Positions 7,904-27,696 of a DNA stretch of 53,073 nucleotides are shown here, piece by piece. Made by a program: the position numbers and the translations under genes. The stretch comes from Chloracidobacterium sp. (GTDB taxonomy: Bacteria; Acidobacteriota; Blastocatellia; Pyrinomonadales; Pyrinomonadaceae), in NCBI GenBank assembly GCA_043739565.1, contig JAYUDV010000328.1, positions 1 to 53,073 of the forward strand. The letters run 5' to 3'. Positions within the stretch are counted from its first letter, which is position 1, and each line of letters starts with the position of its first letter. The notes under the pieces are model-generated. The model was not told the DNA's origin. It saw only the letters and a program-made list of their open reading frames with translations, and made no database searches.

Positions 7904-9217
7904 TTATTTAGCGGCCTCGCTTGCGTGCCCGCCGGCATCTGACGCGAGATTTTCGGTGATCCGCTCAATATCGGCGCCCAAGCTGCGGAACTTTCGCACG
8001 ATAGTCTCATAGCCGCGATCGATATGGTAAACGCGGTCGATCGTCGTTTCACCTTGGGCGCACAAAGCAGCTAAAACAAGCGATGCCGAGGCCCGCAAAT
8101 CGGATGCTATTATCCGAGCTCCCATGAGCCGGGTCTTGCCTTTTACGAAAGCCTTGTTGCCCGAAATTTGAATATCCGCACCCATTCGGATGAGTTCGGA
8201 TGCATGCATAAAACGATTTTCAAATATAGTCTCGGTAATTGTCGACGTCCCTTCGGCCTGCGTCATTAACGCCATGTACTGCGCCTGCATATCGGTCGGA
8301 AAGTTAGGGTGAGGCTCGGTCGTAACGTTTTTTGCCTTGAGACCGCCCGAAGAGCATTTGACCAGCAGCGTGCTCTGGTTAAGCTCCTCAATCGCGACGC
8401 CCGCGTCACGCAGTTTCCGGATGACAGCCGTAAGATGTTCCGGCACACAACTTTTTATCTCGATCTCGCCATTTGTGATAGCCGCTGCAACGATAAAGGT
8501 GCCGGCTTCTATTCGATCAGGAATGATAGTATGTTCGGCACCGCCAAGAGCCTCGACTCCGTCGATCTGGATCGTAGAGGTGCCGGCTCCCTTGATACGC
8601 GCTCCCATTTTATTGAGAAGTTCGGCAAGATCCTCGATCTCGGGTTCCTCCGCCGCATTGTGAATGGTCGTTTTGCCTTTTGCCAGAGCAGCCGCCATCA
8701 TTACATTCTCGGTGCCCGTGACAGTTATCTTTTCAAAATTAATGGTGTTACCGACAAGGCGGCCCTTGGGCGCACGGGCGACGACATCCCCGGATTCGAG
8801 AGAAACGTCTGCTCCAAGCTGTTCAAAAGCCCTGAGGTGCAGATCGATCGGCCGCGTACCGATCGCACAGCCGCCCGGCAGGCTCACCTTTGCCTGTCCA
8901 AAGCGCGCCAAGAGCGGGCCCAACGCCAAAACGCTCGCACGCATCGTTTTCACTAATTCGTACGGTGCCTCAAAAACTTGGACATTCCCGGCGTTAACCT
9001 TGTGTGTTCTCAACTCCGGCGTCAAAACCGTCGCGCCGAGATCTTCGAGCAGCCGCCGCTGTGTGATGAGATCCTTTACATAAGGGACGTTGTGAAGCGT
9101 AACGGTTTCAGCCGTAAGAAGTGTTGCCGCAAGGCACGGAAGGGCCGAATTCTTGGCTCCGCCGATCTCGATCTTTCCCTTCAGCGGATTGCCGCCGCGA
9201 ACCAAAAATTTATCCAT
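7904..9217 (-). CDS. murA: UDP-N-acetylglucosamine 1-carboxyvinyltransferase
   Basis: MDKFLVRGGNPLKGKIEIGGAKNSALP N-terminus, active-site loop LPGGCAIGTRPIDLH, full-length EPSP-synthase fold. Short extra C-terminal tail. Confidence 0.95.
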   Translation of the reverse strand: MDKFLVRGGNPLKGKIEIGGAKNSALPCLAATLLTAETVTLHNVPYVKDLITQRRLLEDLGATVLTPELRTHKVNAGNVQVFEAPYELVKTMRASVLALGPLLARFGQAKVSLPGGCAIGTRPIDLHLRAFEQLGADVSLESGDVVARAPKGRLVGNTINFEKITVTGTENVMMAAALAKGKTTIHNAAEEPEIEDLAELLNKMGARIKGAGTSTIQIDGVEALGGAEHTIIPDRIEAGTFIVAAAITNGEIEIKSCVPEHLTAVIRKLRDAGVAIEELNQSTLLVKCSSGGLKAKNVTTEPHPNFPTDMQAQYMALMTQAEGTSTITETIFENRFMHASELIRMGADIQISGNKAFVKGKTRLMGARIIASDLRASASLVLAALCAQGETTIDRVYHIDRGYETIVRKFRSLGADIERITENLASDAGGHASEAAK

Positions 9218-9329
9218 AACAGACGTAAGATGCGGCGTACCGAGGTGCGAGGTACTAATTTTCCTTATACAAACGAAAACGAAATGTTATCACACGCGAT
9301 GAGCTTTTTATAGGAGAAATCATCTCCAT

Positions 9330-9980
9330 TTGCCTCTCCGCCTTGTCATTTCCAGCCGTGTATTTCAGAATCGTTACGACGTGTCAATTTCCTTACTACC
9401 TCCAGTCTTAGGTTCTACCGATCTGGCCAAAGCGGACGCGGATCTTGTACTAAGATGCCGGGGAAATGATCAGACGGCCTGGGACCAACTGGTTAACCGT
9501 TACCAACGCCTCATTTTCGCGATTCCGAGACGCGCGGGGCTAAGCGAAGAACAGGCTTCGGACGTATTTCAGGAAGTATTTCTCACACTCTTCGAAAAGA
9601 TCAATGAGATCAAGCAGCCTGACAGGATAAGGTCGTGGCTCGTAACCACCGCAAAATTCAAAACTTGGTCGGTAATACGTGGCTCTAAAGGGTTTTACTC
9701 ACCCGAATCGGAAGAGGAAATGGACGCCGAAATGGCGAGCCTCGCTGATCGCTCGCCGCTCGCCGACGAAACCTTGATCGAACTCGAGGAGCAGCATTTG
9801 ATCCGCACAGCCGTGCGTAACTTAGAGGAAAAGTGCCGGCAAATACTTTCTATGATCTACCTGAGCGAGCCGTCCGCAAGCTATGCCGAGGTGGCACTGG
9901 CGATCGGCGTTGGAGAAACAAGCATTAGCCCGATGCGGGCGCGCTGCCTTAAAAAACTTCAGACGATACTTACAAAATAA
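9330..9980 (+). CDS. ECF-type RNA polymerase sigma-70 family factor
   Basis: Region 2 (AWDQLVNRYQRLIFAIPRR...DVFQEVFLTLF) and region 4 HTH (ILSMIYLSEPSASYAEVALAIGVGETSISPMRARCLKKL). The true start may be downstream of 9330. Confidence 0.85.
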   Translation: MPLRLVISSRVFQNRYDVSISLLPPVLGSTDLAKADADLVLRCRGNDQTAWDQLVNRYQRLIFAIPRRAGLSEEQASDVFQEVFLTLFEKINEIKQPDRIRSWLVTTAKFKTWSVIRGSKGFYSPESEEEMDAEMASLADRSPLADETLIELEEQHLIRTAVRNLEEKCRQILSMIYLSEPSASYAEVALAIGVGETSISPMRARCLKKLQTILTK

Positions 9981-10051
9981 CGGTGAAATGTATTTTTTTG
10001 ATTTTCAGGAACACTGTATGAATGGAGAGAGTAAACCGACTCCGATGAAAA

Positions 10052-10546
10052 GTGATGAATAACTCGAAAGAAAAGATACTTGAACATATTGTGGGGCGAA
10101 TGCAGCAGGACAAAACGATTGACGCGCCCGCTGATGCGGTCAGATACGCCAAAAACCTTTACCGCACACGAGCGGCGGAGCCGAAACTTTCGATGATCCA
10201 TCGAGTTCTTGCGGTTATGCAGATCGATCTGGCTCCAAACCGCGCGGCATTTGGCGAACGTTCGGCAGCCGCATCGCAGGTTCGTCAGATGCTTTTCAGT
10301 GCGGGAGAAAACAGCGTTGATCTGAGAATCGAAAAAGACGGAAAAACTTTCAAGATAACAGGACAGATATTGGGCGAAGGATTTGCATCGGCGGAAGTAA
10401 AAATTAACGACACGGAAACCTCTTTTGAAACGCAAACAAATGATCTGAGCGAGTTTAAGGTTGAAAATATTGTGGAGGGAACATATGTTCTGGTATTGAC
10501 CGGAGACGACAAGGAAATTGTGCTTGAAAATTTGGAAATCAAATGA
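10052..10546 (+). CDS. Hypothetical soluble protein between the ECF sigma and TPR-CHAT genes (candidate non-canonical anti-sigma or substrate)
   Basis: 164-aa ORF with no TM segment and no zf-HC2 cysteines. The C-terminal part looks like a small beta-sandwich (VENIVEGTYVLVLTGDDKEIVLENLEI). It is followed by a strong terminator. Confidence 0.55.
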   Translation: MMNNSKEKILEHIVGRMQQDKTIDAPADAVRYAKNLYRTRAAEPKLSMIHRVLAVMQIDLAPNRAAFGERSAAASQVRQMLFSAGENSVDLRIEKDGKTFKITGQILGEGFASAEVKINDTETSFETQTNDLSEFKVENIVEGTYVLVLTGDDKEIVLENLEIK

Positions 10547-10650
10547 TGTTTCTCTTTCGGAAGCGTCGGAAATGCTTATCGTTATCTTAGAGTCTTAGAT
10601 CTTGCGGACAATCTTGGGCAATCTTAGCCTGTTCAATAACATGTTGAAAT

Positions 10651-10685
10651 AAGGGGCGGATATTATCCGCCCCTTATTGTTTTGT
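10651..10685 (+). terminator. Rho-independent terminator
   Basis: Perfect 10-bp stem AAGGGGCGGA / TCCGCCCCTT with a 5-nt loop, followed by ATTGTTTTGTT. Confidence 0.6.
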
Positions 10686-10703
10686 TATAGTGTTAATCGA
10701 GCT

Positions 10704-13523
10704 ATGCGGCGTCAGGAACTCATTAACAAACTGCTCGTTACAAACCAAAAGCATCACCATCGGTCTCTATTTAAGCAATATTCTGATTTGATTGACCTCC
10801 AATTGGCCGCAGATTTGAAAGATACTTGCTATGATTCGTGGACCAAAGCTCCGCAAAAAACACGCAACGCTGCAAAAGCATTAGAAGCGTTATGTAAGAT
10901 TTTTCCTGGCGATGAAGTTAAGGCCCTGGCGAGTTGGGCTAGAGGTATTGCATCTTTAACAGAAGGTAAAATAGAGAAAGCTATTGTCGAACTTGATATA
11001 TCTTCAGAAATATTTGGATCCCTGAAACAATTTAGTCAGTCGGCACAACCTAAAGTGAGCAAACTTTACGCTCTTTCTTTACTCGGTCGCTATGACGAAG
11101 CAGTTGAAACCGGCAAAATGGCGTTAAAGATTTTTGAAAAACACAGCGATCTTCTTGCCTCCGCCAAAATCGAGATGAATCTCGGTAATGTCTCTCTACG
11201 GCGGGAATTTTATGCGGATGCCGAAAAGTTTTTCCTTTCCGCCCGAAATAGATTTATCCATCTAAACGATACGAGGTGGTTGACGATGTGCGAAAACGAC
11301 CTCGCAATCACGTATTCCTCACTCAACGATTATCGCAGAGCGGAAAAATTCTACCGTCATGCTCTAACAAAGGCTCGTGAAATGAAAATGAGTGTAACTG
11401 AAGCAGAAATCGAGGCGAGCATGGGAAAACTCGCCCTTTTTCGCGGCAGATTTGACGAGGCATTACGCTTTCTACAACTTTCGAGGCAAAAATACGACGA
11501 GCTGAAAATGCCGCATCAAACCGCAATTGCCGAACTGGAAATCGCCGATGTTTATCTTGAATTGAATTTGTCCGACGAAGCGTTTTCGATCTATGCAAAC
11601 GTTACTGAATCGCTCAAACGCCTTAAATTGCAGGGCGAAGAAGCCCGGGCCCGGGCAAATTTCGGCAGAGCGGCACTGTTAAAAAACGACCGGAATAAAG
11701 CCAGACGCGAACTAAAAAAAGCGGAACGGCTTTATCTCATGGAAAAAAATCCGACTGGTGCGGCGGGCGTAAAATTAACCAAAGCCTCATTGGAACTATC
11801 GGGGGGAAATTACAAAAATGCCCTGAAAGCTATTCGCGAGTCCGAAAAACTTCTCAAAAAAACCGAGAATCCCCGATTAAAACTTCTTGCCCAATGGCTT
11901 CACGGCGAGACGTTGCGAAATTTGAATCAATTCAAAAGAACGGAAAAACTCCTGATGGCCACCTTTGCCGAAGCCATCCGCACTGAGCAATTAAATTTGG
12001 CGCAAATTTGTTTAATTTCGCTTGGAAACCTAGCGTTGCAAACCAACGACAATCGGACAGCCGAAGGCTATTTCAAAAGAGCCGTGAAAATGATCGAAAC
12101 GCTTCGCGAGCCTTTGCCCGCCGAAGAATTCAGGATGGCTTTTTTGGGTGATAAGCTGGCGCCGTTTGAGAGTTTAGCAAAACTTTACTTAACGGAAAAC
12201 GAATTGGAAAAAGCGTTTTTGATGATTGAAAAAGGCCGCGCGCGGACACTCTCGGAAAATCTGGATGGTGCTTTTGTCGGACAAAACGACAAAACTTCGT
12301 CGAAACTGCGTAAACAATCGGCGAACTTACGTGAAGAATTAAATTGGTTTTACAGCCGTCTCAATCGGGCCGAGGTCGGCGAATTTGAAAGTTTGCAAAA
12401 AGAAACGAGAAAGCGTGAAAAGCAAATTGCCGACGTTATGCGGCAGATCGAAAGCACACGCACCGATGCCGCCAAGGCAACATCGAAACACCGAAGCCAT
12501 CGTAAACAAGACAGCCTTAAACTTTTGCAAAACAAACTAGGGAAACAAAAGGCCTTGGTTGAATTTGTCAGTTTTGACGGTATGATTTCCGCTTTTGTGA
12601 TCGCCGATAAAACGATTGATTTTGTCGCGGATTTGGCGATGGAACCGGAGATTTTCGCGCTTCTCGAAGGCTTGCAATTCCAGTTTGGAGCTTTGCGTTT
12701 CGGGAAGCAAAATCTTTGTGCGTTTATACCCGATCTCAAAAACCGGGCCGATGCGTATTTGCAGAAATTATATGAAAAACTCATCAAGCCGCTCGAAGCA
12801 TTTATCGGCTCGCTCGATTTGGTCGTCGTTCCGGCCGGTCCGCTGCACTATGTGCCGTTTCATGCTCTGAATGACGGTAAAAAATATCTTATCGAAATGC
12901 GGGAAATCGTTCACTCACCAAGCGCTGCTATTTGGCGATTTTTGAGTAACGAGCCAGCGAAAAAAACACAGAATGCGCTGCTGATTGGCTTTGCGGACCA
13001 TAACATTCCATCAGTAAACGAGGAAATAGAAACCTTGCAAAAGATTTTTCCCACTGCAGTTTCTTTTACCGACAAAAAGGCGACGTTTGAAAATTACATC
13101 CAAAACGCCCATAAATTCGACGTTTTACATTTGGCGTGTCATGGACAATTTCGGCCTGATAATCCGATGTTTTCGAGTCTGCACCTGGCGAACGGATTCG
13201 TGACGGTACGAGATATTTGTGCTCAAAATCTAAAAGCCCAGCTTGTCACACTTAGTGCGTGCGAAACCGGATTGAACAAGATCTTTGCCGGCGACGAGAT
13301 TGTCGGGCTGGCACGAGGTTTCCTTTCTGCTGGATCAAAATCTCTAGTGTTGAGCCTCTGGACGGTCAGCGACGCGGCAACCACCGAATTGATGAAACAT
13401 TTTTACACTTGTTTACAACGTGGCGAGTCAGTTGCGGCATCTCTAAAAATGGCACAGATAACTTTTATTAACCGCTGCGAGCATCCTTACTTCTGGGCAT
13501 CATTTATTTCCATCGGTAGATAG
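10704..13523 (+). CDS. TPR-repeat protein with C-terminal CHAT (caspase-like) protease domain
   Basis: About 600 aa of TPR-like repeats, then a CHAT domain with the His/Cys dyad (VLHLACHGQF ... LVTLSACETGLN). No signal peptide. ATG 10704 (MRRQELINKLL) is preferred because the track start at 10677 lies inside the terminator hairpin. Confidence 0.85.
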   Translation: MRRQELINKLLVTNQKHHHRSLFKQYSDLIDLQLAADLKDTCYDSWTKAPQKTRNAAKALEALCKIFPGDEVKALASWARGIASLTEGKIEKAIVELDISSEIFGSLKQFSQSAQPKVSKLYALSLLGRYDEAVETGKMALKIFEKHSDLLASAKIEMNLGNVSLRREFYADAEKFFLSARNRFIHLNDTRWLTMCENDLAITYSSLNDYRRAEKFYRHALTKAREMKMSVTEAEIEASMGKLALFRGRFDEALRFLQLSRQKYDELKMPHQTAIAELEIADVYLELNLSDEAFSIYANVTESLKRLKLQGEEARARANFGRAALLKNDRNKARRELKKAERLYLMEKNPTGAAGVKLTKASLELSGGNYKNALKAIRESEKLLKKTENPRLKLLAQWLHGETLRNLNQFKRTEKLLMATFAEAIRTEQLNLAQICLISLGNLALQTNDNRTAEGYFKRAVKMIETLREPLPAEEFRMAFLGDKLAPFESLAKLYLTENELEKAFLMIEKGRARTLSENLDGAFVGQNDKTSSKLRKQSANLREELNWFYSRLNRAEVGEFESLQKETRKREKQIADVMRQIESTRTDAAKATSKHRSHRKQDSLKLLQNKLGKQKALVEFVSFDGMISAFVIADKTIDFVADLAMEPEIFALLEGLQFQFGALRFGKQNLCAFIPDLKNRADAYLQKLYEKLIKPLEAFIGSLDLVVVPAGPLHYVPFHALNDGKKYLIEMREIVHSPSAAIWRFLSNEPAKKTQNALLIGFADHNIPSVNEEIETLQKIFPTAVSFTDKKATFENYIQNAHKFDVLHLACHGQFRPDNPMFSSLHLANGFVTVRDICAQNLKAQLVTLSACETGLNKIFAGDEIVGLARGFLSAGSKSLVLSLWTVSDAATTELMKHFYTCLQRGESVAASLKMAQITFINRCEHPYFWASFISIGR

Positions 13524-13611
13524 TAAACTTGAAACGTGTCTTTTTGATTGAAACGAGAGCACTGTGGTAGTGGGTTGGGTATTTGGCACCATTACACATG
13601 TGAGGGGATTA

Positions 13612-14979
13612 ATGAGAAGAATTAGCTATCAGATCTGGCTGAAAACCGCATTTGCGATAGTGTTTATGTGCGCTTTTTCGATATTCGCTCGAGGAATGGA
13701 TGTAGCCTCGGGCTGCGACTGTAACCCGACGCAGGTCATCGTCCAGTTAAACAACGCCGCCGATCTGCCGGCTGTTGCCGACCAATACCATCTAAATTCA
13801 ACGCCGGTCGGGCAATTTGCTTCGCCGACGTACTACCTATTACAAATCCTGGACTCGCAAACGCCGCCGCAGGTTGTGACGGCGATGGCGGGTGACGCTC
13901 GTGTAAAAAAAGTAGAAGTAAACCGTATTTTTTCAAACGCGGAAGTTGGAGGGCTAAGTTGGACACGGGGACAATCGTGGGCGATCGGACAGTCATGGGC
14001 AATCGGCGGCAGTGCCAAAGGTTATGCAAGGCAATGGTTTCCGCAAAGAATTAGGCTAAACGAGGCTTTTGCCGCCGCCGGGACTCGAGGATTACGGGCT
14101 GATAACGGCCAACCGATCGTTGTCGCTGTGTTGGACACTGGCATCGACCTAAATCATCCCGCGTTTGCCGGACGACTCGTTCCACCGGCGGACCGCTGGG
14201 ATTTTGTTGACGGAGACAACGACCCGAGCGAGGTCGGCGTGCTTCATATCGATCCGGCATACGGACACGGCACACATGTCGCGGGAATTCTCGCTCTGAT
14301 GGTGCCCGACGCCAAGATAATGCCGATCCGCATCCTTAACCGCGATGGTTCCGGTGAGCTTTGGCGAATAACCGCCGGCCTCATCTGGGCCGCAAATCAC
14401 GGTGCGGATGTTGCAAATCTAAGTATTGGGTATCCAGAGAACGTGAGGATTCTACACGACCTCCTGGATTGTGAAGACCTGGGAATATCCGACGATGGGA
14501 CGACATTTCCGGAACTGGGAACGCATCGGATTGCCGTATCGGTTGCTTCGGGTAATGGCGGAAACCAGGTGAAGGTATATCCGGCCGCTGAAAATCGTTC
14601 CGGCATGCTTTCGGTTGCCGCCAGTACCCGGTACGACGAGCTTGCTGTTTTTTCGTCCTATCAGGTCGGATGGGTTAAAGTCACAGCACCGGGCGAGAAT
14701 ATCGTTAGCGCTCTGCCGGGCGGACGATATGGAATGTGGTCCGGAACCTCTATGGCCTCTCCAGTTGTCGCCGGTTTGGCCGCACTCTTAAAGGCTCAGT
14801 ATCCCGACCCAGCGACGTTCCCGACACCACACGACCTATTGAACCGGATCTTTCAGACATCCGTGGACAAGCGCATCGGAAACTCAAATTCCCTTCCCTT
14901 TGGTGTGATAAATTTGCACCGCATCGATGCCCTTTGCGCGGTAACAAATGATACTCATTGCCCGATTCCGGCTAACTGA
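13612..14979 (+). CDS. Secreted subtilisin-like S8 serine peptidase with I9-like propeptide
   Basis: Catalytic triad motifs VLDTGID, HGTHVAG, SGTSMASP. Signal-like N-terminus from ATG 13612 (MRRISYQIWLKTAFAIVFMCAFSIFARG) preceded by GAGGGGA. Contains an 18-nt tandem duplication at 13969-14004 (GQSWAI GQSWAI). Confidence 0.9.
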   Translation: MRRISYQIWLKTAFAIVFMCAFSIFARGMDVASGCDCNPTQVIVQLNNAADLPAVADQYHLNSTPVGQFASPTYYLLQILDSQTPPQVVTAMAGDARVKKVEVNRIFSNAEVGGLSWTRGQSWAIGQSWAIGGSAKGYARQWFPQRIRLNEAFAAAGTRGLRADNGQPIVVAVLDTGIDLNHPAFAGRLVPPADRWDFVDGDNDPSEVGVLHIDPAYGHGTHVAGILALMVPDAKIMPIRILNRDGSGELWRITAGLIWAANHGADVANLSIGYPENVRILHDLLDCEDLGISDDGTTFPELGTHRIAVSVASGNGGNQVKVYPAAENRSGMLSVAASTRYDELAVFSSYQVGWVKVTAPGENIVSALPGGRYGMWSGTSMASPVVAGLAALLKAQYPDPATFPTPHDLLNRIFQTSVDKRIGNSNSLPFGVINLHRIDALCAVTNDTHCPIPAN

Positions 14980-15051
14980 GCAACAACTTAGGCTTCGATA
15001 ATTTCTCGTAAAATAGTCGTCAATTTAGTGAGGGTTATCGAGCCAAGCGGG

Positions 15052-15078
15052 CCACGCATCCAGCGTGGTCTTTTTTTA
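15052..15078 (+). terminator. Rho-independent terminator after the S8 peptidase gene
   Basis: Stem CCACGC / GCGTGG, loop ATCCA, followed by TCTTTTTTTATT. Confidence 0.55.
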
Positions 15079-15173
15079 TTGCATAAATTGTCTTTTTCAA
15101 CTATCCGTTCCCACTGTGTTTATGACGGCACCCAAAAATTGGGTTAAACGAATAAAAAGGTTAGGTATTAAAA

Positions 15174-17270
15174 ATGAAAAAACGACAAATTCAAACTAAA
15201 AAGAGATCTTTTTTTAAAGTGGCCACAATTCTCGTGGTAATGGCCGCGTGGGTGACGATCCCGCTGCTGATCGATAAAGCAGAGGCCAGCGAAGGACGGC
15301 CGATCGCCGTTCGAACGGCAACTCTTATTGCACCCGGCGGAGGGGCAAACCCGCATGGTGCAGCTACATGGCAGTTGTACCCAAGATCCGTCCGTGAGAT
15401 CGAAATCGAAATCGAGGATGTCAATCTCGCCCCCGGAATATCCTTAACAGTCAATGTCGATGGCAACATAATCGGTCAGATCGTTTTAGACGCTACCCGT
15501 AAAGGGAAGCTCAAACTAAGCACGGAAGACGGCCAAGTGGTGCCGTCCGTCATTGACGGATCGACCGTCGACGTGCGCAACGGTACCACGATCCTTGTTG
15601 CCGGCGTATTCGCCAGCGGCGCTCCGACCCCGACCCCGTCGATTACACCGACAGGAACGCCTACCGGGACGCCAAGCCCTTCGCCCTCACCGACCGGAAC
15701 ACCAAATTCGGGTGACCTATTTGCCGGTTTAACCGGTTCGACCTTAAACGGTGTCCTGCCCCTCGGGTTCGCCGAGTTTGAGAATCACAGTAGCGAAGTC
15801 GAGTTGGAGATTCGTGTTCGACAGGTCAATTTGCCGATCGGTACATCCCTCGCTGTTTCAATTGATGGCAATTTGGCAGGCAGCTTTACTCTTCAGGATC
15901 GAGGCGAGGGAAGGCTCAAATTGAGCAATGAAAATGGCCAGACAGTACCCGCCGTCGTTGCCGGATCCGGCATTGTCGTAAAAAATGGCACCTCGACCGT
16001 GCTTTCGGGAACATTTGGAGGGTCTGTCGTGCCAAGCCCCACTCCGACCGGTACACCAGGACCGACGCCGAGTCCGAGTCCAAGGTTGGGCCGTTCGTTC
16101 GAAGCCCATCTTACCGGCAGCCAGGTGTCACCGCCGGTTACAACACCGGCAACGGGCGAGGTTAAACTCATTCTTGACGGCGCGGAAGCGCAGGCCACTG
16201 TATTTGGCGAATTCCACGGTCTTTCTAGCAATCAGATCGGTGCGAGGATAGAAACCACTGTGGGAACAGTAGCCTTAATACGCGACCTAGGAGCCATAGG
16301 TGGACGTAACGGAGAATTTGCATCGGCAACGTTTAGCATTTCGGCTGCTCAGGTTCAGCAGCTTCGGGCAGGACTTTTTTCAGTCGTTATCTCTAGTGTG
16401 AATAATCCTACCGGCGAGATTCGCGGTGCTATGACACAACATTCGCGCTTTGCGGATTTTGACGGCGACGGCAGACAGGATTTTGCTATTTTTCGGCCGA
16501 CGACGGGAGAATGGTGGTCGGCGAATGGCGATGGATATTCCGGACAGGCTCTCGGCGGCGCTAATGACCGGGTAGTTTCGGGAGACTACGATGGCGATGG
16601 AAAAACAGACGCGGCAGTGTTTTGTAACATCGCGGGCCAAGGGGTCTGGGAGATTCGACGGAGTTCCGATGCCGGCCTCACCAGAGTATATTTTGGCTTT
16701 CCAACTGACGTACCGGTTCGCGGTGATTTCGACGGGGACGGACGCCTTGACATCGCGGTATTTCGCCCGTCAGACGGGGTCTGGTATATCCAAAAGAGCG
16801 ACAATACCGGATATTCATTCATTCCATTCGGCCTCCCTGACGACATACCGATGCCAGCAGACATGGACGGTGATGGAAAGGACGACATCGTTGTCTTTCG
16901 TCCGAGTACTGGTGTTTGGTACTGGATCAGGAGTTCTGACGGCCAGTTTGGGGCCGTTGGCTGGGGTATGTCCGGAGATATTCCCGTTCGTGGTGATTTT
17001 GACGGTGACGGCAAGGCCGATCTAACCGTCTACAGACCGTCCACGGGTGTCTGGTACACACTTCGAAGCTCGGACGGCGGTTTTCAAGTGTCCGTCTGGG
17101 GACTGCCTACGGATATTCCCGTAGCCGGAAACTATGATGCTGACGGAAAAACAGATGTCGCCGTCTTTAGACCTTCGGATGGAAACTGGTACGTTCTTCG
17201 AAGTACGGATGGCAGCTACCAAGTGTTTAATTTTGGCATGAACGGCGACGTGCCTCTCGTTGCTCAATAA
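15174..17270 (+). CDS. Secreted multidomain protein: two repeated beta-sandwich-like modules, Pro/Thr linkers, CHRD-like domain, eight FG-GAP/VCBS-type repeats
   Basis: Signal or TM N-terminus. Two homologous modules (IEIEDVNLAPGISLTVNVDGNIIGQ... and LEIRVRQVNLPIGTSLAVSIDGNLAGS...). Linkers PTPTPSITPTGTPTGTPSPSPSPTGTP. CHRD-like end motif SVNNPTGEIRGAM. Eight copies of GDFDGDGKxDxxVFRPSxGxWY. Confidence 0.8.
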   Translation: MKKRQIQTKKRSFFKVATILVVMAAWVTIPLLIDKAEASEGRPIAVRTATLIAPGGGANPHGAATWQLYPRSVREIEIEIEDVNLAPGISLTVNVDGNIIGQIVLDATRKGKLKLSTEDGQVVPSVIDGSTVDVRNGTTILVAGVFASGAPTPTPSITPTGTPTGTPSPSPSPTGTPNSGDLFAGLTGSTLNGVLPLGFAEFENHSSEVELEIRVRQVNLPIGTSLAVSIDGNLAGSFTLQDRGEGRLKLSNENGQTVPAVVAGSGIVVKNGTSTVLSGTFGGSVVPSPTPTGTPGPTPSPSPRLGRSFEAHLTGSQVSPPVTTPATGEVKLILDGAEAQATVFGEFHGLSSNQIGARIETTVGTVALIRDLGAIGGRNGEFASATFSISAAQVQQLRAGLFSVVISSVNNPTGEIRGAMTQHSRFADFDGDGRQDFAIFRPTTGEWWSANGDGYSGQALGGANDRVVSGDYDGDGKTDAAVFCNIAGQGVWEIRRSSDAGLTRVYFGFPTDVPVRGDFDGDGRLDIAVFRPSDGVWYIQKSDNTGYSFIPFGLPDDIPMPADMDGDGKDDIVVFRPSTGVWYWIRSSDGQFGAVGWGMSGDIPVRGDFDGDGKADLTVYRPSTGVWYTLRSSDGGFQVSVWGLPTDIPVAGNYDADGKTDVAVFRPSDGNWYVLRSTDGSYQVFNFGMNGDVPLVAQ

Positions 17271-17274
17271 TAAT

Positions 17275-17300
17275 AAGGTGGGTTAAATCCACCTTTTTCT
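17275..17300 (+). terminator. Rho-independent terminator after the FG-GAP gene
   Basis: Stem AAGGTGG / CCACCTT, 7-nt loop, followed by TTTCT. Confidence 0.55.
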
Positions 17301-17391
17301 AGCAACCATTGTAGACTCACGAATCATCGTACGAACGGCTTCAAACATGCAGAAAGTATGACAGCTATTATGAATTTGTTTGAAGTCTTTT

Positions 17392-17423
17392 CCCCGGCTA
17401 AATAACCCTCCTTTTAGCCGGGG
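17392..17423. terminator. Hairpin between convergent genes (possible terminator for the DinB-family gene)
   Basis: 11-bp stem CCCCGGCTAAA / TTTAGCCGGGG with a 10-nt loop. The flanking U-tract is weak on both strands. Confidence 0.4.
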
Positions 17424-17427
17424 ACTT

Positions 17428-17967
17428 TTATTGCCTTATCTTTTCAAAAAGCCGTCCTATCTGGGCCGTATGTCTGGCCTCATGCCCGCCCGACAATATG
17501 AGCCACTCCGTCGCGGTGAGATCGCCAAGATATGGATGCGGAAACTTCGATTCTGAAAGTTCATAACTCTCAAAACCTGCACGCAGCGCAGCTAACGCAT
17601 CACGAGTTATTTTCATTTGCTCAAAGGCGCCGGCAATCGAAATATTGCCGGTTGGTTGGACACGCTCGGGTGCCTCCAGCTTGACATCAACGATTGACGA
17701 CAACTTTGATGCAAAATCTTCCGAGATCGCCAAGCTGCCATCCGAAAGCTTACCGTTGGTTTTAGCGGCTTCGATCAATTTCGCGCATATCCTTGCAACG
17801 TTATATTCGACGATCGAAATATGCTCGACGAGCTGTTGGATTGTCCACTTTTCGCCGTCGGGTAATGCGGTCAGTTCTGTTTCGGCAATCTTAGCGACAG
17901 TCTCGCAGAGCCGCTCGCGGATCTTTTCATTTGCCGAGTAGATATCGGCTATCGATTCGTATTTCAT
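17428..17967 (-). CDS. DinB-family (DinB_2) metal-dependent protein
   Basis: 179 aa, four-helix-bundle-like, with conserved His positions including GGHEARHTAQI near the C-terminus. Confidence 0.75.
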   Translation of the reverse strand: MKYESIADIYSANEKIRERLCETVAKIAETELTALPDGEKWTIQQLVEHISIVEYNVARICAKLIEAAKTNGKLSDGSLAISEDFASKLSSIVDVKLEAPERVQPTGNISIAGAFEQMKITRDALAALRAGFESYELSESKFPHPYLGDLTATEWLILSGGHEARHTAQIGRLFEKIRQ

Positions 17968-25869: not shown

Positions 25870-27696
25870 CTAAAATCTGACCTGAATGCCGCCCCGCAAC
25901 ATCATCCGCTGGGCGTTCAATCTAAGGCTGCCATCTTCGCCGACGACACCCGATTGAAAATCAAAAATATTACGCGCGTCAACAATCGCCTGAGCCCTTA
26001 TCGGAAGACCGAGCGTTGGTAAACTCTGCGTTATCACTACACTAAGGCCTGGATCGTAAATAGCCAGTCTGCCCTTGAACGGGTCAATCGCGAAAACCGT
26101 CGCCTGCGATGAAAGACGAAAGACCGTTTTCACGCTCGTACCCGTCTTCAGATCAGCCGCCAGTTGAGCAAAGAATGATTGGAAAAAGTCGCCTTCAAAA
26201 ATATTCGAAGGATTGGTCAGGGCCGATTTGGAAATCTTCTGCCCTTTGCCGAACGAATAACCAGCGGACGTCGAAAATATTCCACTCATTCTACGGCTGT
26301 AAACCACTCTCAATCCGCTTGCCTTGCCTTGTTGATTCGCGACAAATTCACCAAAACCATCACCGCCAAGTGTGTCAAAGGCAAGGCTGTTCAATCCGAC
26401 ACCGCGACCCAGCGTCGTATCAAAAAAGACATTCGCCTCAATACTTGAGCTGTTGTCGAGAATTCGTTCAATACCAAATTCGAGCCGCCGGCTCCGGTTC
26501 ATCTGGGGTTTGCCGTTGACCAAGTACAGATCCTCAATCGAAACCGGTTCGCTAAATGCAATGCTTTCACCCTCTAGATCAACCGCATGCGCCCAGGATT
26601 TCGCTTCAGTCTGCGTAGTAAATGCAGTACGAAAACGGGTCTTTGCATCGATGTCAAACTGCAAACCAACGCGAGGCGATAACGCCGAACTATTGGCGGC
26701 ACCCATATACCGCGAATAGTCGAAACCGAGGACAAGTATCACACCATCACGAAGTTTCCATTCATCCAGTGCTTGAAACGAGATCTGGCCGAGTTGTCTT
26801 TCGCTCGGACCAAAAACTATGTTTCCGAGTCGTCCGGCCGAAGAATTAAGCCTGATTTGATGGTCACTCGCAGGTCGGAATTTGAAATCTACTTCGAGCC
26901 TCTGCGGGGCATTTTTACCCACGCCGGTCTGTCCCGCTAAAATAACCTCAGCCTTAGCCCCGGCGGGCAGCATCGTGGCAAAATTCAGGCCGCCGTAGGC
27001 GCCTTGCTTCGAACTCGCGAAATAGGTCTCAACCACCGTTTGGCTTTTTCGGCTCGAAGACCTTTCGTCCGGGATACTGACATCCGCTTTGGAATCAGCG
27101 TCGCTTGCGGTCGTTTTATCTTCGTCTATTTGAGGCTTACCCTGTCGATGCTGATAGATCGATCGCTGTGATTGGGCCGCGCGTATTCGCCATTTGGAGC
27201 TATTTCGATCGAGATGCTTTTCAGGCAGCGTGTTGCCGCTGCCGGCTCGTTCTAGTTGGAAACCGTAATTCACCTCGGCCGCACGTCCCACCTCGACACC
27301 TAAAAGCGTAACGGGATTAAACCCCTGCGCGACAGCAAGCAGCGTATAGGTACCAGGTAATATCTTTGCCAAAAAAGTGCCATCCGAGGCCGAAGATACC
27401 TGTTTTAATAATTTGGATGTACCGCCGCGAAAGATCGCAACCGTTGCGTCCCCGATCGGGCTTCCGCCCTCGTCGCGGACGATTCCCCGGATAACACCGA
27501 GACTTCCGCTTTTTTCAATCGTTATTTTGGCACCAGCAGCGGACGCGGCAGCAAAAATTCCCGTCGCCGTAATTAGCAACAAAAATAAGGGCCGTAAACA
27601 TGACCACGAAAAACTCTTTAAACTATTAGTGAACCGCATTAGAAAAGCCAATACCAGTAACTTTCGTATTCTGTTCGCAAAAAGCAAATGTGTCAA
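25870..27696 (-). CDS. Outer-membrane beta-barrel protein with N-terminal carboxypeptidase-regulatory-like domain
   Basis: CarboxypepD_reg-like IRGIVRDEGGSPIGDATVAIFRGG...GTYTLLAV, alternating beta-strand pattern, C-terminal ...GGIQVRF. The true start is probably the internal M at about 27639 (MRFTNSL...signal). Confidence 0.7.
   Translation of the reverse strand: MTHLLFANRIRKLLVLAFLMRFTNSLKSFSWSCLRPLFLLLITATGIFAAASAAGAKITIEKSGSLGVIRGIVRDEGGSPIGDATVAIFRGGTSKLLKQVSSASDGTFLAKILPGTYTLLAVAQGFNPVTLLGVEVGRAAEVNYGFQLERAGSGNTLPEKHLDRNSSKWRIRAAQSQRSIYQHRQGKPQIDEDKTTASDADSKADVSIPDERSSSRKSQTVVETYFASSKQGAYGGLNFATMLPAGAKAEVILAGQTGVGKNAPQRLEVDFKFRPASDHQIRLNSSAGRLGNIVFGPSERQLGQISFQALDEWKLRDGVILVLGFDYSRYMGAANSSALSPRVGLQFDIDAKTRFRTAFTTQTEAKSWAHAVDLEGESIAFSEPVSIEDLYLVNGKPQMNRSRRLEFGIERILDNSSSIEANVFFDTTLGRGVGLNSLAFDTLGGDGFGEFVANQQGKASGLRVVYSRRMSGIFSTSAGYSFGKGQKISKSALTNPSNIFEGDFFQSFFAQLAADLKTGTSVKTVFRLSSQATVFAIDPFKGRLAIYDPGLSVVITQSLPTLGLPIRAQAIVDARNIFDFQSGVVGEDGSLRLNAQRMMLRGGIQVRF

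Follow-up and report, generated by a model that had tools for sequence, protein, structure and literature searches.

A conserved acidobacterial module combining an ECF sigma factor, a putative degenerate anti-sigma factor, a cytoplasmic TPR-CHAT protease and two secreted proteins

The locus described here is carried by a soil/sediment acidobacterium, Chloracidobacterium sp. (Pyrinomonadaceae, Blastocatellia, Acidobacteriota), and lies on contig JAYUDV010000328.1; the window, that is, the whole stretch of DNA analysed, comprises 53,073 nt. In a six-frame list of open reading frames (ORFs), three co-oriented ORFs were found on the + strand at 9330-9980, 10052-10546, and 10677/10704-13523. A first-pass annotation of this DNA had assigned them to a sigma factor of the extracytoplasmic function (ECF) type, a small soluble protein, and a protease with tetratricopeptide repeats (TPR) and a CHAT domain, and the ORF list together with the Pfam and NCBIfam matches confirmed that the three genes are real, intact, and on the + strand. 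The trio was also correctly seen as a unit in that its genes are adjacent in the relatives, but the functional unit does not end at 13523, where that annotation had closed it. It runs to 17270 and takes in two further genes, so that the trio is the regulatory core of a five-gene module consisting of the ECF sigma factor, the small protein, the TPR-CHAT protein, a secreted subtilase (S8), and a secreted CHRD/FG-GAP protein.

One genome per species was scanned with the alignment of the small-protein homologues, and 64 loci were obtained, nearly all of them named Pyrinomonadaceae, Chloracidobacterium, Blastocatellia, or Acidobacteriota, with one labelled Actinomycetota (L019). Gene pairs were counted by tblastn of the window proteins, using only the loci whose contig reaches far enough. 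The sigma and small-protein genes were adjacent in 63 of 63 loci and the small-protein and CHAT genes in 59 of 59; conservation of the trio as a neighbourhood, on which the first-pass proposal had been made to depend, was thereby established. Furthermore, the CHAT and S8 genes were adjacent in all 45 countable loci and the S8 and CHRD genes in 40 of 43. Each species-level genome in the sample appears to hold one locus of the module, which has been conserved by vertical descent within the family. Its flanks in the window are housekeeping genes, namely a HIT-family gene, a class I glutamyl/glutaminyl-tRNA synthetase gene, and a homogentisate dioxygenase gene, with a further flanking gene that, judged from its sequence, we take to be murA. 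Only about half of the loci share the murA-HIT-TPR flank, so that conservation of the module does not depend on its neighbours. The locus labelled Actinomycetota (CAWGWR010000010.1, a metagenome-assembled genome of an uncultured Actinomycetota) encodes a sigma factor and a small protein 64% and 51% identical, respectively, to those of the window; its CHAT gene is split over several ORFs, and its first 3 kb look different in composition. An artefact of binning or assembly seems a likelier source of this locus than a true actinobacterial copy.

The first gene of the module (9381-9980, + strand) encodes an ECF sigma factor of group IV, which at 199 aa has the size (approximately 200 aa) and the composition, sigma2 and sigma4 domains only, of that group. 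The Sigma70_r2 profile matched with 34.4 bits (cut-off 24) and the sigma70-ECF profile TIGR02937 with 84 bits (cut-off 42.9), Sigma70_r4 stayed slightly under its cut-off with 20.8 bits, and every match to a specific NCBIfam sigma subfamily was far below its cut-off. Together with the CHAT and TPR matches given below, the profile searches agreed with the domain assignments made at first pass, Sigma70_r4 being the one family to fall just short. The closest solved relative of the sigma factor is SigW (5wuq_A, E 1.4e-6), whose partner is RsiW. Its identity across 63 loci is 62-79%, and a Cys pair in sigma4 is invariant.

As called mechanically, the sigma ORF opens at TTG 9330. Because the alignments of the homologues start near residue 27-32 of this ORF, and because a conserved sigma70-like promoter lies inside its 5' end, the start codon is most likely GTG 9381, which gives the protein of 199 aa. 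The promoter in question, TTGTCA-17-CAGAAT (9343-9371, + strand), was recognised in a promoter scan, and an element of the form TTGCnA-17-cAGAAT right before the sigma start codon is kept in many related loci. Since it ends 9 nt before GTG 9381, the sigma mRNA would be leaderless or have a very short leader. The sequence GTATTTCAG before the sigma start was considered as a -35 element of the ECF54 group (GTATCAG) and was rejected, as the matching -10 element would be within the coding sequence, 35 nt away.

The second gene (10052-10546, + strand) encodes a soluble 164-aa protein, which is anti-sigma-like according to its alignment with short homologues (A1), its AlphaFold2 model, and its longer relatives. 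The protein contains no Cys, and its maximum 19-residue hydropathy is 0.83, so that it has neither the zinc-finger cysteines nor a transmembrane (TM) helix, as had been noted before. Moreover, no TM segment or signal peptide was found in the sigma factor, the small protein, or the CHAT protein (no 19-residue hydropathy above 1.6 in the latter two), and the non-membrane character ascribed to the trio therefore holds for all three proteins. In Pfam the small protein matched only TIG, with a score exactly at the cut-off, while PF13620 matches were obtained in its homologues; the family comprises 273 clusters at E <=1e-3. In alignment A1, the residues M17, D20, D24-A25-P26, and D28 of the N-terminal helices are invariant, as is the loop F67-G68-E69-R70-S71 (AFGERS, residues 66-71), and the C-terminal domain also holds invariant residues. 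The AlphaFold2 model shows two low-confidence helices (4-19 and 25-40), a loop at 67-74 with a predicted local distance difference test (pLDDT) score below 50 that overlaps the invariant motif, and a beta-sandwich at 77-163 with a pLDDT above 90. A Foldseek search with this model returned only generic Ig/beta-sandwich matches, none with E <1e-3.

The ancestry of the small protein was disclosed by its longer relatives. A profile search of 1.8 billion representative proteins returned many relatives of 195-205 aa, in which the match starts at about residue 42. The extra 40 or so residues of this long form carry H-x25-H-x3-C-x2-C, the signature of zinc-associated anti-sigma (ZAS) domains; H32, C36, and C39 are invariant, H7 is near-invariant, and the R-S of the loop is invariant here too. 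The zf-HC2 family scored above its cut-off in 2 of 10 long-form proteins tested, and the source names of long forms include "zf-HC2 domain-containing protein [Pyrinomonadaceae]" and "anti-sigma factor RsiW". When the short-form alignment A1 was compared with the long-form alignment A3 by hhalign, the short form was placed on long-form residues 43-199 with a probability of 100% (E 3.4e-57). The A3 profile matched RsiW (5wuq_C, E 3.8e-7) and, in its N-terminal domain, DdvA (8rlz_A, E 4.9e-4), and the A1 profile alone did not reach RsiW. The small-protein family profile matched no Csx30 chain in the PDB at E <=10, though 8eey contains one.

The window protein begins after the ZAS motif (H-x3-C-x2-C with an upstream His/Cys ligand) and retains roughly the last two anti-sigma helices and the beta-sandwich. 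On these alignments, the small protein is assigned as an N-terminally truncated, zinc-less descendant of a soluble ZAS anti-sigma factor. It had been proposed at first pass as the partner of the sigma factor, and its place in an anti-sigma family (the A1-A3 alignment, the match of A3 to RsiW, and zf-HC2 in its relatives) agrees with this. The sigma factor and the small protein thus very probably stand in a sigma/anti-sigma relationship, and the small protein, whose homology to the anti-sigma domain is reached via the long form, is predicted to bind the sigma factor.

The third gene (10704-13523, + strand) encodes a cytoplasmic TPR-CHAT protein, for which the TPR array, the CHAT domain, and the intact dyad described at first pass were all recovered, and only the length had to be corrected, from 940 to 939 aa. 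CHAT (PF12770) matched with E 6.7e-62, and TPR_12 and TPR_MalT matched as well. HLACHG occupies residues 809-814 and LSACETG residues 850-856; within them, H809, A811, C812, H813, L850, A852, C853, E854, and T855 are invariant in 45 full-length CHAT homologues. The catalytic dyad, by which a clan CD CHAT protease activity is predicted, consists of H813 and C853. Since the dyad and the surrounding motif are invariant in the 45 homologues, protease activity appears to be under selection.

The AlphaFold2 model of the CHAT protein (25-row alignment, pLDDT 77.8) consists of about 11 TPR pairs at 30-470, long helices at 530-612, and a CHAT domain at 616-938; both the sequence and the predicted fold show the caspase-like fold and His-Cys dyad of clan CD CHAT proteases. 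The top Foldseek matches of the model were human separase (9hn0_B, 1.9e-11, TM-score 0.50 on the query), DdvA (8rw5, 3.1e-11), and Csx29 in Craspase (8eey_B, 3e-10). The NCBIfam model of Csx29, NF041237, whose cut-off is 300 bits, reached 74.4 bits, with the match confined to the CHAT domain, and the Csx29 chains of the PDB matched only residues 703-897 (E 5e-9). By its sequence and modelled fold, the protein is placed in the separase/DdvA/Csx29 architectural class and is not a Csx29 orthologue.

When the region before the CHRD gene was aligned, a strictly conserved bipartite element, TGTCTTT-N16-CACTGT, was found. In the window, it occurs three times on the + strand, each copy being a candidate ECF promoter: P_small (TGTATTT-N16-CACTGT, one mismatch) at 9989-10017, directly after the sigma stop codon, and two exact matches, P_S8 at 13537-13565 and P_CHRD at 15089-15117. 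The two exact copies compare with 0 expected by chance, and no site beyond these three was found in the 53 kb at up to two mismatches. The loci and the window together gave 139 instances, each exactly 29 nt long, with 56 before the small gene, 37 before S8, and approximately 45 before CHRD. Exceptions are coincidental matches in the sigma coding region of L029 and L040 and an extra site in L041; in L003, the CHRD gene is inverted and the motif lies on the minus strand. From its fixed spacing, strand, and distance to the start codons and its co-inheritance with the sigma gene, we consider it likely that the element is the promoter recognised by the module's sigma factor. It is in no group's entry of the ECF classification supplement. 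The extra site of L041 (15376-15404) is a fourth exact copy that lies 3' of CHRD, before a gene starting MKYVHRH..., and the regulon may thus have extra members in some genomes.

No copy of the motif was found upstream of the sigma gene in any locus. As the sigma-dependent promoter would lie between the sigma and anti-sigma genes (9978-10017) and none before the sigma gene, the arrangement points to negative feedback without the usual positive autoregulation. The sigma/small unit ends in an intrinsic terminator (10648-10688, + strand), which has a 14-bp stem (10648-10678) and a T run behind it; the terminator placed at 10651-10685 in the first-pass annotation is thus genuine, and a hairpin with a T run follows the small gene in 50 of 58 related loci. 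Beyond it, a TATAGT hexamer (10686-10691, + strand), 12 nt before the start codon, is a candidate -10 element of a housekeeping-type promoter of the CHAT gene, and in 39 of 59 loci the CHAT start is preceded, at 2-12 nt (mostly 7-11), by a TATAAT-like hexamer. An extended -10 element (TGnTATAAT) before the CHAT gene was dropped as a candidate, since a strict count gave 5 loci only. In eight loci, L003 (8487-8937), L006, L015, L020, L023, L040, L053, and L063, the stretch that separates the small gene from the CHAT gene is enlarged to 150-450 nt. These inserts contain very long perfect inverted repeats (-168 kcal/mol in L003) and resemble miniature mobile or palindromic elements beside the terminator.

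At both 9343-9383 and 10686-10706, a -10-like hexamer precedes the start codon by 9-12 nt and no Shine-Dalgarno sequence is visible, which suggests that the sigma and CHAT mRNAs may be leaderless in this Blastocatellia lineage. The three ECF-type promoters would give leaders of approximately 25-100 nt. In the clade of the window, the sigma factor and the protease thus look constitutive, and the anti-sigma factor, the subtilase, and the CHRD protein look sigma-dependent, as far as promoter sequences tell.

The subtilase gene (13612-14979, + strand) encodes a secreted S8 protease of 455 aa (Peptidase_S8, E 3.5e-41) with the D/H/S motifs DTGID, HGTHVAG, and GTSMASP and an N-terminal signal-peptide-like segment. 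Its start is ATG 13612 rather than 13564, because the -10 element of P_S8 ends at 13565 and ATG 13612 gives a proper signal peptide. Within the gene, an 18-nt tandem duplication at 13969-14006 encodes GQSWAI twice, between the propeptide-like region and the catalytic domain. A terminator after the gene (15049-15080, + strand) is also visible in related loci. The last gene (15174-17270, + strand) encodes a 698-aa protein with a signal peptide, two N-terminal repeat domains, a CHRD domain, and FG-GAP repeats by Pfam, and this protein is likely an output of the module.

The 5' untranslated region of the CHRD mRNA begins with a conserved TGACGACACC box (window 15130-15144), which is also present in L001, L002, L007, L011, L014, L031, L036, L041, L043, L048, L050, L054, and L056-L059. 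The box is followed by a short hairpin, ACCYC...GRGGT, with compensatory changes at 3 of its 5 pairs among 17 loci. The CHRD leader differs in the other subclade.

A second, more distant clade was represented by four long-form loci, which encode a sigma factor, a ZAS protein, a TPR-CHAT protein, and a 713-821-aa protein, with a divergent gene upstream. The 713-821-aa protein is a subtilase homologue (44% identity by tblastn), and the divergent gene shows homology to the CHRD/FG-GAP protein of the window over the N-terminal 300 residues of the latter. Compared with the window proteins, the sigma factor is 50-52% identical, CHAT 41-42%, and the anti-sigma factor 31-33%. All five components have thus been kept together on either side of a deep split; the order of the sigma, anti-sigma, and CHAT genes is fixed, and the CHRD-like gene moves. 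The same promoter element, mostly as TGTATTT-N16-CACTGT, is found before the ZAS, subtilase, and divergent genes. Furthermore, the CHAT gene starts 1-35 nt after the anti-sigma gene. Cluster look-ups of distant relatives gave no names beyond Pyrinomonadaceae, and a tblastn search of the PLSDB plasmids with a long-form anti-sigma factor gave no match.

Several further searches were directed at the surroundings of the module. No direct-repeat array was found in the 53-kb window, and the scanned window ORFs (230 aa or longer) included no cas-like protein, each of them belonging to another family or being housekeeping; the repeat search and the large-ORF scan thus bore out the earlier statement that neither Cas7-11 nor an array is present. 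No Rfam family scored above threshold in 9000-17500. With PADLOC, the module proteins gave no specific match to a defence family, and the weak matches were to the PADLOC models named subtilase (E 9.6e-21) and BovA (E 9.5e-7). A transcript search found no RNA runs with the locus, the carriers being sediment DNA metagenomes only. Further families in the window include an M61 peptidase and a histidine kinase. On the - strand, a 608-aa protein (window 25870-27696) with a CarboxypepD_reg domain (E 1.5e-11) has no motif copy close by and seems unrelated to the module.

Since the sigma-dependent promoter would drive the anti-sigma factor and the outputs only, and not the sigma gene, the module of the window's clade would be under pure negative feedback, which is unusual. 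The best explanation, in our view, is that the CHAT protease frees the sigma factor from its small inhibitor and thereby switches on the two secreted proteins, a tentative reading to which we give slightly less than an even chance. The sigma factor would be made from its housekeeping-type promoter and held inactive by the 164-aa protein. The TPR-CHAT protein, made from its own housekeeping-type promoter, would be both sensor and effector protease, with the TPR solenoid reading a cytoplasmic cue. Once cued, it would cleave the anti-sigma factor, a step that we regard as possible and, again, as falling somewhat short of probable. Proteases of clan CD, separase among them, cleave behind a defined P1 residue. 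Given the invariant residues and the modelled disorder, the likeliest cleavage position would be the flexible AFGER|S loop, after the invariant Arg70. The freed sigma factor would then transcribe from the three TGTCTTT-N16-CACTGT promoters, and its targets would be the anti-sigma gene, as negative feedback, and the genes of the secreted subtilase and the secreted CHRD/FG-GAP protein.

Several observations weigh against this mechanism. The contacts between the sigma factor and the small protein, and between the small protein and the CHAT protein, are predicted ones, and the promoter was assigned to the sigma factor only by co-location. Of the four anti-sigma helices, only two are left in the short form, which also has no zinc site. 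The conserved terminator parts the small and CHAT genes, which shows separate regulation and not interaction. Moreover, the long-form CHAT gene abuts the anti-sigma gene behind an ECF-type promoter, as a regulon member would look.

The last of these points leads to another explanation, in which the sigma factor and the small protein form an ordinary sigma/anti-sigma pair, the anti-sigma factor is inactivated otherwise, and CHAT is a co-conserved regulon member or effector. The protease could then have other substrates, act on the precursors of the secreted proteins, or cut the sigma factor itself as a shut-off. The position of the long-form CHAT gene, 1-35 nt after the anti-sigma gene and behind an ECF-type promoter, fits such a role, as does the report that conserved ECF neighbours can be regulators or targets (PMC7826278), and the sigma-small-CHAT interaction is itself a prediction. 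In the window's clade, however, the CHAT gene is without the ECF motif and is set off by a terminator in 50 of 58 loci and a -10-like hexamer in 39 of 59. Furthermore, it adjoins the anti-sigma gene in 59 of 59 short-form loci and in the 4 long-form loci, whereas the CHRD-like gene was rearranged between the clades, and the short-form anti-sigma factor, having lost its zinc/redox site, needs an external inactivator. We consider this explanation unlikely.

A non-proteolytic release can also be imagined, in which the TPR solenoid or another partner sequesters the beta-sandwich of the anti-sigma factor (partner switching) and the protease serves otherwise, or in which, for the long form, the ZAS motif senses thiol oxidation directly, like RsrA. 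TPR arrays serve to bind proteins, the beta-sandwich has a confidently predicted fold and is conserved, and the long forms keep the complete H-x25-H-x3-C-x2-C. Nevertheless, the dyad and the surrounding motif are invariant in 45 homologues, the window protein is without Cys, which rules out redox sensing in this clade, and invariant R-S residues in a disordered loop are met more typically at processing sites than on binding surfaces; such a release is, in our judgement, quite unlikely. The question of the input signal raises a last alternative, compatible with the cleavage mechanism, in which the module is an anti-phage or stress-alarm system, TPR-CHAT detects a phage cue, and the sigma factor starts a defence programme. 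Both characterised bacterial TPR-CHAT/sigma systems are defence loci (PMC10028731; PMC11506125), and the weak PADLOC matches to subtilase (E 9.6e-21) and BovA (E 9.5e-7) point the same way. However, no specific defence model matched, the flanks are housekeeping, the locus is single and vertically conserved in the species-level genomes sampled, and the outputs are two exported proteins and not nucleases or membrane disruptors. A defence role seems very unlikely to us.

If the CHAT protease does release the sigma factor by cleaving the anti-sigma factor, the module would be informative beyond its own lineage. To our knowledge, there is no stand-alone bacterial TPR-CHAT protease with a known substrate, the characterised ones being the CRISPR-dependent Csx29 and DdvA, which is fused to a membrane anti-sigma factor. 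The present module is a minimal, fully cytoplasmic three-protein system with a candidate substrate, a candidate cleavage loop, and three adjacent reporter promoters, so that an idea put forward first for ECF54, in 2015, namely proteolytic sigma control that does without membrane proteases, becomes open to direct tests, both in vitro and in a heterologous host. It would show how caspase-like proteases came to be connected to transcription before CRISPR recruited them, and would be the first regulatory circuit for the poorly studied Blastocatellia.

Among known systems, separase is the best fold match of the TPR-CHAT protein overall. It is a eukaryotic protease with site specificity, which cleaves behind an Arg within a loop; it is much larger and has no link to a transcription factor, and the likeness is architectural only. 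RsiW is a membrane protein that is removed by site-1 and site-2 proteolysis. SigW and RsiW are the closest solved sequence relatives of both partners, RsiW via the long-form family. Unlike RsiW, the window protein has no helices I-II, zinc ligands, or TM segment, and it has a beta-sandwich.

DdvA, which acts with DdvS in Myxococcus xanthus, is a single-polypeptide TM anti-sigma factor with a periplasmic, dimeric TPR-CHAT part; its active site is incomplete, self-clipping has been proposed, and release is proposed to need RseP (PMC11506125). Like DdvA-DdvS, the module couples a ZAS-type domain to TPR-CHAT and an ECF sigma factor, as judged from the long-form and fold matches. In contrast to the single DdvA polypeptide of ZAS domain, TM helix, and periplasmic TPR-CHAT, the module has separate genes for separate cytoplasmic proteins without TM helices, and it has two secreted outputs where DdvA has a CBASS/CRISPR regulon.

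In the Craspase arm of type III-E CRISPR systems, Csx29 cleaves Csx30 within a flexible loop that belongs to the C-terminal domain of Csx30 and thereby relieves the inhibition of CASP-sigma, whose binding sites lie in its own locus (PMC10028731). The resemblance to this arm claimed at first pass stands as a functional analogy: a cytoplasmic TPR-CHAT protease of the same fold class, a soluble sigma inhibitor (predicted here), and an ECF-type sigma factor are encoded together. Membership does not stand, with 74 bits against the 300 of the Csx29 model, no Csx30 homologue, neither Cas7-11 nor an array, and separase and DdvA equally close in fold. Csx30 (565 aa) is no relative of the small protein, which appears to derive from a ZAS anti-sigma factor. 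Since the window has no Cas7-11, array, or cas genes, the activator cannot be an RNA-guided complex.

A paper by Huang et al. of 2015 (J Bacteriol 197:2517) is said to be the source for the genomic context of ECF54. This group is 100% Actinobacteria and no anti-sigma factor was found for it (Casas-Pastor et al. 2021 supplement); a carboxypeptidase-regulatory-like protein is always encoded at +1, a subtilase at +2 or -1, and CHAT at +3 or -2, with TPRs, two sigma4 Cys occur in some subgroups, and the predicted promoter is GTATCAG-Xn-CTCC (Casas-Pastor et al. 2021). Proteolytic control without an anti-sigma factor has been proposed for it (2022 review, PMC8999054). In line with this published description, with which alone the module was compared, the window has an ECF sigma factor for which no membrane anti-sigma factor was recognised, a beta-sandwich protein at +1, TPR-CHAT at +2 and the S8 subtilase at +3, hence both within three genes, and a Cys pair in sigma4. 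It differs in gene order (sigma, +1, CHAT, S8 here; S8 at +2 and CHAT at +3 there), in belonging to Acidobacteriota and not Actinobacteria, in its TGTCTTT-N16-CACTGT motif in place of GTATCAG-Xn-CTCC, and in the extra conserved CHRD/FG-GAP gene. The gene combination was therefore already noted in ECF54, and the acidobacterial module is a variant with a clearer circuit. What the variant adds is an identifiable three-promoter regulon, a promoter layout that splits regulators from outputs, and a +1 protein that, by its alignment with the long form, is itself a degenerate anti-sigma factor. Taken together, the comparisons allow the possible, though rather doubtful, view that stand-alone cytoplasmic TPR-CHAT proteins are signal-activated, site-specific processors of soluble anti-sigma factors at G-x-R|S, and that a cassette of this kind, which would occur widely in Acidobacteriota and perhaps be identical with the ECF54 cassette, was the ancestor of both the Craspase arm and the fused DdvA.

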